A stretch of 64,000 nt of DNA, taken from IMG/VR virus record IMGVR_UViG_3300016744_000001. One strand, written 5' to 3'. The notes under the pieces are model-generated. The model did not search any database, was not told the DNA's origin, and saw only the letters and a list, made by a program, of their open reading frames with translations. Of this stretch, positions 1 to 58,684 are shown piece by piece; within the stretch, counting starts at the first letter, position 1; the number at the start of each line of letters is the position of its first letter. Source of the stretch: a virus (Duplodnaviria; Caudoviricetes). Position numbers and translations under genes: made by a program.

Positions 1-129
1 AGTTTTATAGATCTGATCAATCGCAAAATCTCGGCCATGGTGCAGTATGATTTTGTACTCAGCAGATAACCAAGTAAGAACCTGATCATTCTTCGCCCAG
101 CTGCATTTAACATCAAGATAGGGAAATTC

Positions 130-354
130 ATGAATACGAAACCTACTAAGGCTGCAAAAGCGTTTGTCGATACCAAAGCTCACTTGTTTGAAGAAGAGAT
201 CTTCATGTTTGTCGCAGCTTCCAGAAAGGCTGCTGAAAAGGAACTGCGTGAGCGTTTCCCCAAACTGTGGATCGAAAAGACCGACGGGACGTATCGCTCG
301 GAGAAAGACGGAGAATGGCTCCTCTTCATCCGTGAAGAACCTGTGATCGGTTAA
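130..354 (+). CDS. hypothetical phage protein (74 aa)
   Basis: ORF track; weak SD (GGGA) upstream; no recognisable motif. Confidence 0.6.
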   Translation: MNTKPTKAAKAFVDTKAHLFEEEIFMFVAASRKAAEKELRERFPKLWIEKTDGTYRSEKDGEWLLFIREEPVIG

Positions 355-360
355 AGATTT

Positions 361-684
361 CCGGCAGGGGTACTTAAAGCCGTGTGAAATGTCATACCGC
401 TTAAATTGGGTATTTGTAGGTTTGATGGACCTCTCCTACTTAACCCTGCCGGTCCAAATTGAGAGTCATGGACCCCTTCCAATATCGACCTCCTTGCTGT
501 GCTGCGTCGCATTGGCTCCTATCCCCATCATGACTCTCATTCATTTCTCTTCCTGCTCGGTAGCCGAAGTTGCTCCCCCTACCAGCTGACTGAGGTCTTG
601 CAGGAAGAGAATAAACCTCAATGTTCACCGTCAACAACAGCGTGGTGTCTGATCAATCAACACTCATGTCGAGCACTGAGGTTT
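361..684 (+). ncRNA. putative multi-domain structured small RNA with C-rich (anti-SD-like) loops
   Basis: Four back-to-back closed stems (361-369/444-452, 460-470/529-539, 545-556/600-611, 613-620/677-684); inner stems contain G-U pairs valid only on + strand; no credible CDS. Confidence 0.65.
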
Positions 685-697
685 TCTTGTTTTATTC

Positions 698-730
698 TAG
701 TGGCACCAACCGTCGGGGTTGGTGCCACTA
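698..730 (+). terminator. 14-bp perfect hairpin, putative terminator
   Basis: tagtggcaccaacc-gtcgg-ggttggtgccacta. Confidence 0.6.
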
Positions 731-771
731 TGACGACAATTTTGAGCATGCATTTTTCTTTTGGAGGAACA

Positions 772-1317
772 ATGTTAATCTATACTGGAATTGGCAGTCA
801 AAAGACTCCACCAGACATGTGCATGCTAATGACTGACATCGCTAAGCAATTAGCAAAACGTTGGTTCTTACGCAGCGGCTATGCTGATGGTGCAGACAAG
901 GCATTTGGAAAAGGAGCTTATCAAGTTAATGCTCCCCAAGTACATTACCTTCCTTGGGCTGGGTTCAACCATGCACCAAAGGACAATCACATCTTTAAGC
1001 CTTTGGATAAATTGCCTAGCCACTTGGTGCTACAAGCAACTGAGATGGCGGCACAGCTGCACCCCAATTGGGCAGCCTGTGGACAAGGGGCAAGAAAGAT
1101 GCACACCAGAAATATGTTTCAGGTATTGGGAGATGATCTAAATACTCCCACCGACATGGTGGTGTGTTGGACTCCAAAAGGATCTGGTTCTGGTGGTACA
1201 GGGCAAGCAATGCGTTTAGCCAAAAAGTTAGATATTCCAGTCTTCGATTTGGCAATTGCTGGGACTCTGGAGGCAATGTTAATTTTCGTATCTGAAAAAG
1301 AAAACACAGAGGTGTAG
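772..1317 (+). CDS. SLOG/DprA-Smf-like Rossmann-fold phage protein
   Basis: SD GGAGG then ATG at 772; motifs YTGIGS, LRSGYADGADKAF, VVCWT...GGTGQAMRLA...IPVFDL. Confidence 0.8.
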   Translation: MLIYTGIGSQKTPPDMCMLMTDIAKQLAKRWFLRSGYADGADKAFGKGAYQVNAPQVHYLPWAGFNHAPKDNHIFKPLDKLPSHLVLQATEMAAQLHPNWAACGQGARKMHTRNMFQVLGDDLNTPTDMVVCWTPKGSGSGGTGQAMRLAKKLDIPVFDLAIAGTLEAMLIFVSEKENTEV

Positions 1318-1321
1318 AATT

Positions 1322-1651
1322 ATGAATCTACCCGGGATATTCGAACCACGAAAACGGCTTTTCGCCGCTCATTTTTGGTCACAACGATCACTTGGGCGTA
1401 ATATTCGGTCATGCTGGGTTGAGTCTGAAGTTAACAGAATACTGAATGAACAGTATTCTGGCCAGTTGTTTGACTTCCTATTTGATCCCAACAAGTACAC
1501 CAGTCGGATGATTATCAGCCACACTGAAATTAAGAAACAGAGAGTCTATTCATGGGGATACACCTGTGATGCGCTTTCACCAAAAAATGGCTATTTTAGT
1601 GAATGCGTGATGCTGGTGGTTGACCGACTAATGGAGAAGGTGTATGGATAA
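1322..1651 (+). CDS. hypothetical protein
   Basis: ORF with GAGGTG SD, in tight operon. Confidence 0.7.
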   Translation: MNLPGIFEPRKRLFAAHFWSQRSLGRNIRSCWVESEVNRILNEQYSGQLFDFLFDPNKYTSRMIISHTEIKKQRVYSWGYTCDALSPKNGYFSECVMLVVDRLMEKVYG

Positions 1652-1913
1652 GTGGACCAAACTGGATGTCATTGGTATGATCAACTGGGTGTTGCTGATT
1701 GTAGCGATATTGCTGCCGATTAAGTTGCCCCATCCGTATTGGGGGATGTTTGAAATGGTCGCATGGGCAATGCCGCTGTTGGTTAGTGGTACACCAGATT
1801 GGGTTTTCCCAGAATGGATAACCAAGTGCCTAGAAATATTGGCATGGATCGCTTATGGAATACTCATTGGTGGAAACCTTTATCTGATTAGTCTTTGCTG
1901 GAGGGTGATATGA
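1644..1913 (+). CDS. small membrane protein
   Basis: hydrophobic segments; overlaps neighbouring ORFs by a few nt. Confidence 0.7.
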   Translation: MDKWTKLDVIGMINWVLLIVAILLPIKLPHPYWGMFEMVAWAMPLLVSGTPDWVFPEWITKCLEILAWIAYGILIGGNLYLISLCWRVI

Positions 1914-2146
1914 AACTAGCAATTCTTAAAGGACTCCATCGAGGACTTCACACCAGAAGAGCCGAGACTCACAAAAATTGTGGTATTTTCCAGCAAAACA
2001 TACCGGGTTATCAAAAGCAAACAAAGCTGATGATACTACGTGCGTTTGCCAGGTCAAATCGAACTCAATCGGCGTTTGTCATCGCGCACAACAAAGAACT
2101 AAATTACTCAATGAAGGTGATGCATGGAGATACCAGAAATCAGTAA
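1910..2146 (+). CDS. small basic hypothetical protein
   Basis: GGAGGG SD; ATGA start-stop overlap at 1910. Confidence 0.6.
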   Translation: MKLAILKGLHRGLHTRRAETHKNCGIFQQNIPGYQKQTKLMILRAFARSNRTQSAFVIAHNKELNYSMKVMHGDTRNQ

Positions 2147-2504
2147 GATTGAGGATCTGGATATACAGATCAAGGCAATTATCACCAAGGCAATCCAAGA
2201 TCCAACCGTGATCCCCGCATACCTGCAGCTGCAGTTGGGAAAGCTGGCTAAGGCACAAGAAGGGTTGTCAGCGATGCTGCTGACTGTGGAAGATGGTTGT
2301 GAAGCGAATACCCGTAAACAGCTGGTGAACACCATGCGATCGGTGGTCCATCAAAACCGGATCATCCAGCATGTGATCAACGTGATCTTGGTCTATATTG
2401 CTAGCGGTGATTATGACAACGCCGCTCACGGTGCAGCACTGCGTGCTGGGGCTGATGCCAGAACAGTCCTGAAGGATGTTTGGAACAAGAAGTTCAAAGA
2501 GTAA
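2124..2504 (+). CDS. hypothetical helical protein
   Basis: GAAGGTG SD; 126-aa ORF. Confidence 0.7.
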   Translation: MEIPEISKIEDLDIQIKAIITKAIQDPTVIPAYLQLQLGKLAKAQEGLSAMLLTVEDGCEANTRKQLVNTMRSVVHQNRIIQHVINVILVYIASGDYDNAAHGAALRAGADARTVLKDVWNKKFKE

Positions 2505-2535
2505 GTTCTGACACCGTGGAGTATTTTGTGTATAA

Positions 2536-2612
2536 GCTAGCGTAGCTCAATTGGCAGAGCAGCTGATTTGTAATCAGCAGGTTTGTGGGTTCAAGTCCCA
2601 TCGTTAGCTCCA
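2536..2612 (+). tRNA. trnT: tRNA-Thr(TGT)
   Basis: acceptor GCTAGCG/CGTTAGC, anticodon arm gctga-tt TGT aa-tcagc, GTTCAAGT T-loop, encoded CCA. Confidence 0.95.
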
Positions 2613-2622
2613 GTGTAAATAA

Positions 2623-2697
2623 TGGGGCTTCGTCAAGCGGTAAGACAACAGACTTTGACTCTGTCATTCACTGGTTCAAATCCAGTAGTCCCAGCCA
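2623..2697 (+). tRNA. trnQ: tRNA-Gln(TTG)
   Basis: acceptor TGGGGCT/AGTCCCA, anticodon arm acaga-ct TTG ac-tctgt, GTTCAAAT, encoded CCA. Confidence 0.95.
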
Positions 2698-2714
2698 AAT
2701 ATTCGAGAGGTAAC

Positions 2715-2966
2715 ATGAACCGCAGCGAGATCTTTGAACGTGTGAAGTTGTGTGTGTCGAAGCACACTGAGGTCGAAGCTGACCTGATCACTGAGCAGTC
2801 AATGTTGGCCGAGGAGTTGAACTTTGATTCGATTGCCTTGATTGAACTGGGCATGGAAATCGAAGAACAGTTTCAGGACATTAAAAAGCTGGATATTCCT
2901 GAAGGGGATATCATCGGCTGGTTTGATGTTGAAGAAATCGTGACTTATCTCGAGCAAGTCCTGTAA
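2715..2966 (+). CDS. acyl carrier protein (AcpP-like)
   Basis: 83 aa, acidic; phosphopantetheine-site motif LNFDSIALIELGMEIEEQF; SD GAGG, ATG at 2715. Confidence 0.85.
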   Translation: MNRSEIFERVKLCVSKHTEVEADLITEQSMLAEELNFDSIALIELGMEIEEQFQDIKKLDIPEGDIIGWFDVEEIVTYLEQVL

Positions 2967-2968
2967 GC

Positions 2969-3002
2969 TACTCATCCCACACCAACTGGTGTGGGATGAG
3001 TA
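2969..3002. terminator. perfect palindromic hairpin
   Basis: tactcatcccacacca-ac-tggtgtgggatgagta. Confidence 0.6.
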
Positions 3003-3055: not shown

Positions 3056-4816
3056 ATGAAGTTATCTGTCAAGTTGACAGGCTTGTCAACAACACTGACT
3101 CTGTTTACAATTATCGTTGGGGTACTAGCGATACTTGGAATGTCAAACATTAACCGTGAAACACAAGACTTGGCGAAGAACTGGTTACCATCAGTCAAGT
3201 CAGTCAGTGAGCTGTCAGATGCGGTTAACGAGTTCAGACGAGATCAGTTGGCTAAGATCATTGTCAACATCAACAACAACAATGAGTTAGTTGTTGAGTA
3301 CAACCAGAAGACTGACAATGACTCAGCTCGTGTACAACGGCGAATGGATCGTTATGCGAAGTTGATCAGTGAACCTGAAGAACGAGTGGCGTTTGAGGAT
3401 TTCAAGATCGCTTGGCAAAAGTACATGGTTATCAATCAACGAATTGAAGTCCTGCTGTTACAAAACAAACCACAGGAAGCTGGCACACTGTTGTTTGGGG
3501 ATGCTCGGGTGATCTACAATACGGCACTATCAAATCTGCTTAAAGCGATCTCAATCAATGACCAAGGGTCAAGTCAATCAGCTGCTAAGGCGAGTGACGA
3601 GTACTCTCGTAGCCGATTGATCACATTGATCTTGACAGTAGTGTCCACGCTGATCGCGATCATGTTTTCAGTATTGTTGATCAGAGTAGTTCTCAAACAG
3701 TTGGGGGAAGACCCGGGGTATCTGTACGAAGTCTCCATGGAGATTGCGAATGGAAACCTTGATGTCAAGTTGAAGTCATTTGTGGGTGAGGGTGGTGTAT
3801 ACGGTGCACTCACGAAGATGGTCGCAACTTTGAAAGCTAAGATCAAAGAAGCTGAAGAGAAGTCAGCTCAGGCTGCACAAGAAGCGCAGTTTGCGAAAGA
3901 AGCCACTGCGGTTGCTGAAGAAGCAACTCAGAAAGCTCAACGTGCCAGAGCTGAAGGCATGATGCAAGCGGCAAAACAGCTGGAAGAAGTTGTGACTATT
4001 TTGACAACAGCGTCTGAAGAACTGTCAGCGCAAGTGGAACAATCTCGTCGAGGAGCAGATGATCAGTCTGGTCGGGTACGAGAAACAGCAACTGCAATGG
4101 AAGAGATGAACGCAACTATCTTGGAAGTAGCAGGGAATGCTCAACATGCAGCTGAAGCGTCCACACAGACCAGACAGCAGGCAATTGAGGGTACCACCAT
4201 TGTTGCTGATGTTGTCAAGAGCATTGAGTCCGTCAGAGTCCAGTCAGCTGGGATCAAGTCAGATATGGACATGCTTGGTAAACAAGCACTGGCAATTGGT
4301 CAGATTCTTAATGTGATTGCCGACATTGCCGACCAGACGAACCTGCTTGCTTTGAATGCCGCCATTGAAGCTGCCCGTGCAGGTGATGCTGGTAGAGGGT
4401 TTGCAGTGGTCGCTGATGAGGTTCGTAAACTTGCTGAAAAATCAATGACTGCTACTCAAGAAGTTGGGAAAGCAATCAATGACATTCAGGAAGGAACTAA
4501 AAAGAATATTGCTGGGGTTGAGAGCAACACTGTTGCAATTGAACAGGTAGCTTTGTTGTCAACTCAGTCTGGTGAAGCATTGACCAAAATCCTTGAGTTT
4601 GTTAACCATGTGAACGATCAAGTGCAATCAATTGCCACTGCTTCAGAAGAACAGTCAGCGGCAAGCGAAGAGATCAATCGTTCTGTGGAAGAAGTGGCAA
4701 CAATTTCCAACGAGACATCAGTTGCTATGGAACATGCCTCAGGTTCAGTTGCTAAACTGTTGCAACAAGTTCAAGTACTTCAGAAGCTCATCACTGAATT
4801 GAAATCAGCTAAATAA
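3056..4816 (+). CDS. methyl-accepting chemotaxis protein (2 TM helices, four-helix-bundle sensor, signalling domain)
   Basis: signature [36 protein letters not shown]; NWLPSV periplasmic 4HB start; methylation helices ATAMEEM and [12 protein letters not shown]. Confidence 0.95.
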
Positions 4817-4820
4817 TTCA

Positions 4821-4854
4821 TCAGTACTACACCCTGAAGAGGGTGTAGTACTGA
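4821..4854. terminator. 15-bp perfect hairpin
   Basis: tcagtactacaccct-gaag-agggtgtagtactga. Confidence 0.6.
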
Positions 4855-9083: not shown

Positions 9084-9114
9084 CACTGACCGGCAGGATT
9101 CCTGCCGGTCAGTG
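9084..9114. terminator. perfect palindromic hairpin
   Basis: cactgaccggcagga-t-tcctgccggtcagtg. Confidence 0.6.
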
Positions 9115-13457: not shown

Positions 13458-13491
13458 GGCTAGAGGGAGTGTTTTCCCACTCCCTCTAGCC
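13458..13491. terminator. 14-bp perfect hairpin
   Basis: ggctagagggagtg-ttttcc-cactccctctagcc. Confidence 0.6.
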
Positions 13492-33320: not shown

Positions 33321-33356
33321 TGATCAGTGAGAGTGGATATCCACTCTCACTGATCA
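33321..33356. terminator. 36-bp perfect palindrome
   Basis: tgatcagtgagagtggatatccactctcactgatca. Confidence 0.65.
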
Positions 33357-40090: not shown

Positions 40091-40126
40091 GATAGACCAA
40101 GCTGGATTGCTCCAGCTTGGTCTATC
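40091..40126. terminator. 16-bp perfect hairpin
   Basis: gatagaccaagctgga-ttgc-tccagcttggtctatc. Confidence 0.65.
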
Positions 40127-58652: not shown

Positions 58653-58684
58653 GATAGACCAGAGGGGAAACCCTCTGGTCTATC
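58653..58684. terminator. 14-bp perfect hairpin with GAAA loop
   Basis: gatagaccagaggg-gaaa-ccctctggtctatc. Confidence 0.65.

Follow-up and report, generated by a model that had tools for sequence, protein, structure and literature searches.

A conserved structured non-coding RNA with C-rich loops in the tRNA cluster of a jumbo phage

What is encoded by the gap that separates a small ORF from a DprA-like gene in the genome of an uncultured wastewater phage? The window analysed here is a 64-kb stretch of DNA that forms part of a 273-kb ENA metagenome contig, and the phage is therefore a jumbo phage. To our knowledge, non-coding RNA has barely been charted in phages, especially in jumbo phages. 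The gene-free gap spans 417 nt (355-771) between a 74-aa ORF (ORF74; 130-354, +) and the DprA-like gene (772-1317, +), and the block is surrounded by a tRNA cluster, with tRNA-Pro and tRNA-Leu upstream and tRNA-Thr and tRNA-Gln downstream. The genes that neighbour the gap are all on the + strand. We find that positions ~355-731 encode a non-coding RNA of ~330-370 nt that is read from the + strand and represents a previously undescribed structured family, without a match to described RNA families. Its phage origin, which the preliminary description had assumed, is supported.

Architecture of the RNA and its locus

The preliminary description placed four stem-closed domains at 361-684, and these stems can be read directly from the sequence, with perfect runs of 9, 11, 12 and 8 bp in D1 to D4, respectively. 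The five C/U-rich motifs that it listed are found exactly at 428-437, 471-480, 487-495, 516-526 and 573-580. The features of the locus are as follows.

130-354, + strand: ORF74, the 74-aa ORF; homologues 73-89% identical
355-360, + strand: 5' flank AGAUUU, invariant, between the ORF74 stop codon and D1
361-454, + strand: D1, closing stem 361-369/446-454, 9 bp perfect (12 of 12 with one mismatch), 3 compensatory pairs
416-420/435-439, + strand: D1b, a hairpin within D1 with conserved loop UYUGAUGGRYCUYU (421-434), 3 compensatory pairs
455-459, + strand: D1-D2 linker, conserved (U/A)(C/U)CAAAU
460-539, + strand: D2, closing stem 460-470/529-539, 11 bp perfect plus a G.U (12 pairs, 460-471/528-539), 3 compensatory pairs
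540-544, + strand: D2-D3 linker UUCAU, nearly invariant (UCCAU in relative L199)
545-611, + strand: D3, closing stem 545-556/600-611, 12 bp, with internal helices; the most conserved module
613-684, + strand: D4, closing stem 613-626/671-684 with 5 compensatory pairs; 8 bp perfect at 613-620/677-684 (14 bp at 86%)
698-730, + strand: D5 hairpin, 698-711/717-730, 14 bp perfect, GC-rich, without a U tract
753-767, + strand: U-rich tract and GGAGG ribosome-binding site of the DprA-like gene, invariant in the window, L003 and L005
772-1317, + strand: DprA-like (SLOG) gene, phrog_768, E 5e-57; a neighbour, not a partner, of the RNA

The four domains measure 94, 80, 67 and 72 nt and their interiors are branched or bulged. 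Within D1, the inner hairpin D1a is variable, being deleted in L005 and replaced in L196. D2 contains an inner helix (479-483/511-515) and pyrimidine-rich internal loops, including UAUCCCC at 520-526, and its apical region, which is also pyrimidine-rich, carries the window-specific ACCUCCUU (about 487-495). D3 is nearly invariant in sequence when homologues are compared; its apical loop, CCCCCUACC at 575-583, contains a C-run whose length is 5, 7 or 9 across homologues. The interior of D4 includes ACCGUCAACAACA (627-639), which is invariant in three versions and deleted in the L196 type. The D5 hairpin had not been mentioned previously. It is followed by UGACGACAAUUUU with no U tract, and so does not qualify as an intrinsic terminator. 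Two relatives that lack D1-D4 (L063 and L195) have a comparable hairpin, CCRACC...GGUYGG, ahead of their DprA-like gene, and we therefore regard D5 as a boundary element and not as part of the core RNA.

Wherever the contig of a homologue extends far enough, ORF74 is located directly 5' of the RNA. The protein has no Pfam or PHROG match, its matches in the Atlas are unnamed small phage proteins only, and the AlphaFold model is poor (pLDDT 56), too low for structure-based use.

Conservation, strand and non-coding status

Relatives were found from close homologues of the two flanking proteins, all of them in Logan, ENA or NCBI metagenome assemblies. They comprise five further distinct versions (L003, the partial L199, L005, L196 and L198), or six with the window; L004 is identical to L003 in the RNA region, and nhmmer gave an identical match of L197 to L196. 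The known family consists of these six metagenomic sequences, all closely related. In IMG/VR, four scans with exact or degenerate patterns returned nothing or chance matches only, and one gapped pattern run against IMG/VR and the JGI metagenomes recovered no further members. No homologue was detected by nhmmer in 57 fetched loci, blastn against INPHARED gave tRNA and DprA matches only, and no further copies of the element are present elsewhere in the 64-kb window. The element has no match in Rfam 15 at gathering score or E <= 10 (a sole chance match, E = 3.9, lies outside it), and ARAGORN reported no tRNA or tmRNA in 355-771. Runs with fragments of the stretch are wastewater metagenomes in which it is present as contigs, fragmentary in the four that were examined; those carrying an RNA-Seq label are probably DNA.

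The minimum free energy of the RNA is -149 kcal/mol, compared with -113.6 ± 6.0 for shuffled sequences (z = -5.9), and none of 100 shuffles was as stable. RNAalifold of the six sequences keeps all of the closing stems, D1b, the D3 interior and D5, and across the 78 consensus pairs 98.2% of cells are standard pairs. Compensatory changes on both sides occur in 19 of these pairs; controls with slid 3' partners give 1-4, and shuffles 0/500. Over the whole gap in three sequences 16 pairs are changed on both sides against 0-3 in controls. The fold is conserved and is no product of chance.

The single-sequence fold of the - strand is nearly as stable (z = -5.7), and stability by itself thus cannot tell the two strands apart. 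In the alignment, several observations favour the + strand. The alifold energy is -123.3 kcal/mol on the + strand (covariation term -7.2) against -110.0 (-3.6) on the - strand, where the structure is broken by C.A and A.C oppositions at positions that are G.U on the + strand; the alignment contains 36 G.U cells and 5 A.C cells. A covariance model built from D3 only (R1) scores 87-95 bits on the + strand and 14-24 bits on the - strand. Together with the orientation of the neighbouring genes, these observations place the RNA on the + strand.

Between versions, paired sites of the RNA are 75-87% identical and unpaired ones 71-75%, compared with 41-62% for four-fold sites of the adjacent DprA-like gene. 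Sequence identity above the four-fold-site level of the next gene clearly points to purifying selection on the RNA. On neither strand is there an ORF common to all versions. Candidate coding ORFs at 389-589 (+), 440-637 (-), 351-512 (-) and 621-836 (+) were rejected because each is missing from some homologues, the last of them reaching a stop after 10 codons in L005. Indels of 1, 3, 4 and 29 nt separate the versions, and the C-run shifts by 2 nt. Covariation, wobble pairs and the lack of a conserved ORF thus bear out the earlier proposal of a structured non-coding RNA on the + strand, and we are highly confident that it is functional.

Conserved loops and a possible pairing function

If the RNA is functional, which parts of it are preserved for interaction? 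The C/U-rich segments had been described as largely unpaired, and the predicted pairing probabilities agree: in three homologues the conserved UCCCC motifs have P(unpaired) values of 0.56-1.0, against a molecule mean of 0.36-0.40. Pyrimidines make up 62-65% of the unpaired positions, and G 11-13%. The two UCCCC motifs are at 522-526 and 574-578; L196 has lost the former, and L199 has an altered form of it. Of the five motifs noted earlier, four vary or are lost in relatives. GACCUCUCCU becomes GACCUUUCC or GGGUCUUUCC in other versions, GACCCCUUCC is variable among the six, and UAUCCCC is intact in four of the six, reads UAUCUCC in L199 and is absent from the L196 type. The 'exact 16S-like' ACCUCCUU (487-495) is indeed present in the window, but it is unique to it, the relatives having GCCUCUUC, GUCUCUUC or UACCUCCAG instead, and the match to 16S rRNA is incidental. 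The only one of the five that is universal is the D3 apical loop, CU-C(5, 7 or 9)-UAYC. Further conserved open parts are the D1b loop UYUGAUGGRYCUYU, the linkers CAAAU and UUCAU and, in three versions, ACCGUCAACAACA in D4.

These comparisons do not favour the multivalent Shine-Dalgarno (SD) sponge suggested by the preliminary description. Since the one universal loop is poly-C and not a CCUCC anti-SD, such a sponge is not what selection preserves. The minus-strand 'SD followed by ATG' that had been read at 508-526 is likewise not conserved, relatives having indels and no ATG there. The closing stems survive deletion of their interiors (D1a in L005, D4 in L196), which suggests that the important feature may be the array of hairpins as such.

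A mechanism can nonetheless be proposed for the RNA. The RNA would probably be part of a rightward transcript of the tRNA cluster (tRNA-Pro, tRNA-Leu, ORF74, RNA, tRNA-Thr, tRNA-Gln), with the long closing stems serving to hold conserved pyrimidine-rich segments open. The segments so exposed would be the D3 apical loop foremost (the C-run and then UAYC), followed by the D2 UAUCCCC and the D1 UGAUGG loop. The C-rich loops could then pair in trans with G-rich single-stranded RNA, typically the ribosome-binding regions of host or phage messages, and this pairing would block translation initiation or trigger decay in the manner of the C-rich loops of RsaE, RNAIII and 6C. By analogy with those RNAs, trans-pairing of the C-rich loops with G-rich RNA, the D3 loop first, is the mechanism that we prefer among those considered, and we put it forward tentatively. 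For the explanation as a whole we give a probability of roughly 0.4, a compromise between our figure for a functional RNA and that for pairing.

Three groups of bacterial RNAs provide the precedent. RsaE, other Rsa sRNAs and RNAIII contain an unpaired UCCC motif that binds G-rich ribosome-binding sites (PMC2790875, PMC2837412). The phage RNA is similarly a multi-hairpin molecule with predicted unpaired UCCC(C) in its most conserved parts (520-526, 573-580), RNAIII is also long with many hairpins and C-rich loops, and pairing to the SD region is the proposed action of the phage RNA. It differs from them in having no homology of sequence or structure by the Rfam 15 search, in being encoded by a phage in what is probably a Gram-negative (Desulfovibrionaceae-like) system, and in having no classical terminator and one C-rich loop alone that is universally conserved. 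The 6C sRNA, a short sRNA of high-GC Gram-positive bacteria, uses its C-rich loops L2 and L3 to bind G-rich ribosome-binding sites such as AGGGGGG (PMC6486639). In D3, too, a hairpin loop is a cytosine run, and this C5-9UA would pair with UAG5-9; however, the phage RNA has a single such loop (D3) in a four-domain molecule of ~330 nt and does not match the Rfam 6C family. The cuckoo RNAs of Alphaproteobacteria (alpha-r14, RSs0680/CcsR, NfeR1) consist of 2-4 adjacent hairpins of 24-50 nt with CCUCCUCCC in each loop (PMC4615179). They share with the phage RNA a modular arrangement of adjacent hairpins, variable compensating stems and pyrimidine-rich anti-SD-like loops, whereas the phage domains are 67-94 nt long, all unlike one another, and none contains CCUCCUCCC. 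Neither 355-771 nor any homologue contains that motif, and CCUCC occurs once, in the window only (489-493). Given the lack of an Rfam match, the absence of CCUCCUCCC and the different domain sizes, the RNA is not a member of the RsaE/RNAIII, 6C or cuckoo families, although it resembles C-rich-loop riboregulators.

Candidate targets were sought in the 64-kb window. The complements of three invariant single-stranded runs do not occur elsewhere in it, and TAGGGGG, the complement of the D3 loop, has no second occurrence on either of its strands. When duplex energies of five loops were computed along both strands of the window, none of the matches fell at a translation start, the best predicted duplexes lying in coding regions or on antisense strands. 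No translation start in the window shows extended complementarity to the RNA. The phage's own starts have ordinary GGAG/GGAGG sites, often behind a U-rich tract, with no private ribosome-binding tag, and a generic anti-SD RNA would therefore also hit phage genes.

In L196, positions 3150-3180 contain a G8 run followed by CCCCCUC, which form a local hairpin ~90 nt before the next gene, and L198 has an equivalent with a G9 run. Within this one phage (L196), UAG8 forms a perfect complement to C7UA of the D3 loop, and the G-run and the C-run are both longer in L198. This match could be due to chance or to homopolymer slippage.

Should the C-rich loops act on ribosome-binding sites, the RNA would be a phage-borne counterpart of RsaE, RNAIII and 6C and a new route to reprogramme translation. 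A broader conjecture, which we consider rather unlikely, is that large phages of unrelated lineages have repeatedly evolved hairpin-array RNAs in their tRNA/tmRNA clusters for translation takeover; their C-rich loops would occupy G-rich ribosome-binding regions of host (possibly defence) mRNAs or bind the translation apparatus, and the RNA described here would be one member, with the C5/C7/C9 loop as its seed. If true, such RNAs would form a class of phage riboregulators that is new to the literature. Whatever the function of the RNA, its alignment and model are a defined object for searches of metatranscriptomes.

Alternative roles and the genomic neighbourhood

Does the RNA bind a protein instead? 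As a scaffold or decoy, the hairpin array with its C-rich loops would sequester or deliver a protein. The candidate partners are the ORF74 product, a host protein that binds RNA, a ribonuclease, and a defence sensor whose substrate is tRNA-like or structured RNA. This role would fit the constant linkage to ORF74, the position among tRNA genes (and in one relative a tmRNA gene) and the failure to find an RNA target in the 64-kb window, and a C-run that varies between 5, 7 and 9 is more readily explained by composition-type recognition than by an exact duplex. Yet ORF74 has no recognisable RNA-binding domain in the Pfam and PHROG searches and the pLDDT 56 model, and we know of no bacterial protein that binds poly-C loops specifically. 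Moreover, L195 keeps ORF74 while an unrelated 533-nt spacer replaces D1-D4. We regard a scaffold or decoy as doubtful.

The L195 spacer (L195:1695-2227) occupies the slot between ORF74 and a D5-like hairpin. It is a 533-nt gene-free stretch with several UCCCUCC/UCCCCC motifs and a folding z of about -2.9, and, D5 and the SD excepted, it has no homology to D1-D4. The slot may thus be filled by another kind of RNA in L195.

A cis-acting role in transcript architecture seems unlikely to us, even though several properties of the locus are consistent with it. The RNA would in that case be a 3' UTR or intercistronic spacer whose hairpins shield the ORF74 mRNA from exonucleases or direct processing by RNase E, III or P, and processing might even release four stem-closed small RNAs of 94, 80, 67 and 72 nt. 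D1 begins 7 nt past the ORF74 stop, the short interdomain linkers CAAAU and UUCAU are conserved, and the closing stems outlast deletions of their interiors. No promoter-like or terminator-like site brackets the RNA, nor is there a terminator-like site in 1-3000, so that it may never exist as a free RNA. Perfect hairpins of 12-17 bp also follow most genes of this genome. Against this role, the generic gene-end hairpins have short loops and no conserved interiors, whereas the interiors and loops of the RNA are conserved well above the synonymous-site level; one hairpin is enough at other genes, and the near-invariant sequence of D3 is not required of simple stability elements.

The gene-end hairpins form a system of their own. 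About 24 perfect, GC-rich hairpins of 12-17 bp with 3-9-nt loops, D5 among them, adjoin gene ends on both strands of the 64-kb window (for example at 2969-3002, 4821-4854, 9084-9114, 13458-13491, 33321-33356, 40091-40126 and 58653-58684). They almost never have a U tract and are often 20-60 nt from the next start, which leaves too little room for a promoter and suggests polycistronic transcripts punctuated by hairpins. They look like genome-wide punctuation for termination by a phage polymerase, processing or 3'-end protection.

It is very improbable that the RNA is a riboswitch-like or SD-masking 5' leader of the DprA-like gene. Alifold predicts a six-pair long-range helix between UCCAAA (455-460) and UUUGGA (760-765), which covers the first two G of the SD, and three versions have an identical U-rich and GGAGG segment. 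The helix, however, lacks compensatory changes, and in L005 one of its pairs is broken. RNA and gene also occur apart. In L196-L198 the DprA-like gene is a ~60-nt remnant in which ATG has become ATA, beside which D1-D3, a shortened D4 and D5 persist; at L196:3075-3125 the SD and about 15 codons of the start are still recognisable, indicating recent loss of the gene in that lineage. Conversely, the genes of L063 and L195 are preceded at ~65 nt by the D5-like hairpin and retain the SD, with D1-D4 absent, and among 80 other DprA-like loci from IMG/VR a long structured upstream gap is almost never seen and the RNA is absent. D1-D4 therefore constitute an independent module and not a leader of the DprA-like gene. 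The region upstream of the 53%-identical DprA-like gene of L063 (L063:277-521) is a 236-nt hairpin-rich gap that ends in a 19-bp hairpin with the CCAACC...GGUUGG top of D5; a U-rich tract and GGAGG come next. In this lineage of phages, D5 and the ribosome-binding site may be a leader that is conserved with the DprA-like gene.

A DNA-level element, with single-strand hairpins used in replication priming, packaging or recombination, would account for the long perfect inverted repeats, and G.T wobbles are tolerated in ssDNA hairpins as well; the strand-specific wobble pattern and conserved loops nevertheless fit RNA, the element is not repeated elsewhere in the window, and a degenerate coding region is opposed by the want of a conserved ORF on either strand, so that we give either of these very little credence. 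Least credible of all is a minus-strand RNA acting as a CsrA/RsmA sponge: its fold is almost as stable and its loops would bear GGA/GGAG motifs, but these loops exist only on the strand that is disfavoured by the wobble pairs (36 G.U cells against 5, with mismatches on the - strand), by an alifold energy 13 kcal/mol worse with half the covariation term and by the R1 scores, and the only promoter-like site on that strand (801-772) is weak, with a 9/12 match and a -10 hexamer that is lost in L003.

Other features of the neighbourhood bear on the phage and its host. One relative, L195, also carries a tmRNA gene (L195:3599-3962, +, on a Logan ERR13656173 contig; tag ANNSTPVYANAA, Rfam 146 bits) near the tRNA-Pro/tRNA-Leu/ORF74 block. 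Long stretches without convincing genes are located between an NAD-dependent DNA ligase gene and the tRNA-Pro/Leu pair in L002 (244-1010) and L003 (2953-4037), where some of the called small ORFs overlap tRNA genes. Within the window, the gene at 3056-4816 (+) encodes a full-length methyl-accepting chemotaxis protein (4HB_MCP_1 and MCPsignal) whose best genomic relatives, at 47-54% identity, are from Desulfovibrionaceae, which lends slight weight to the earlier guess of a host in this family. No DprA-like match was found in the two MAGs with the best chemoreceptor matches (L148, labelled Acidobacteriota, and L146, Desulfovibrionaceae). One full-length chemoreceptor match at 50% identity comes from an 'Acidobacteriota' MAG, where it is carried by a 123-kb contig that may be a mis-binned phage.
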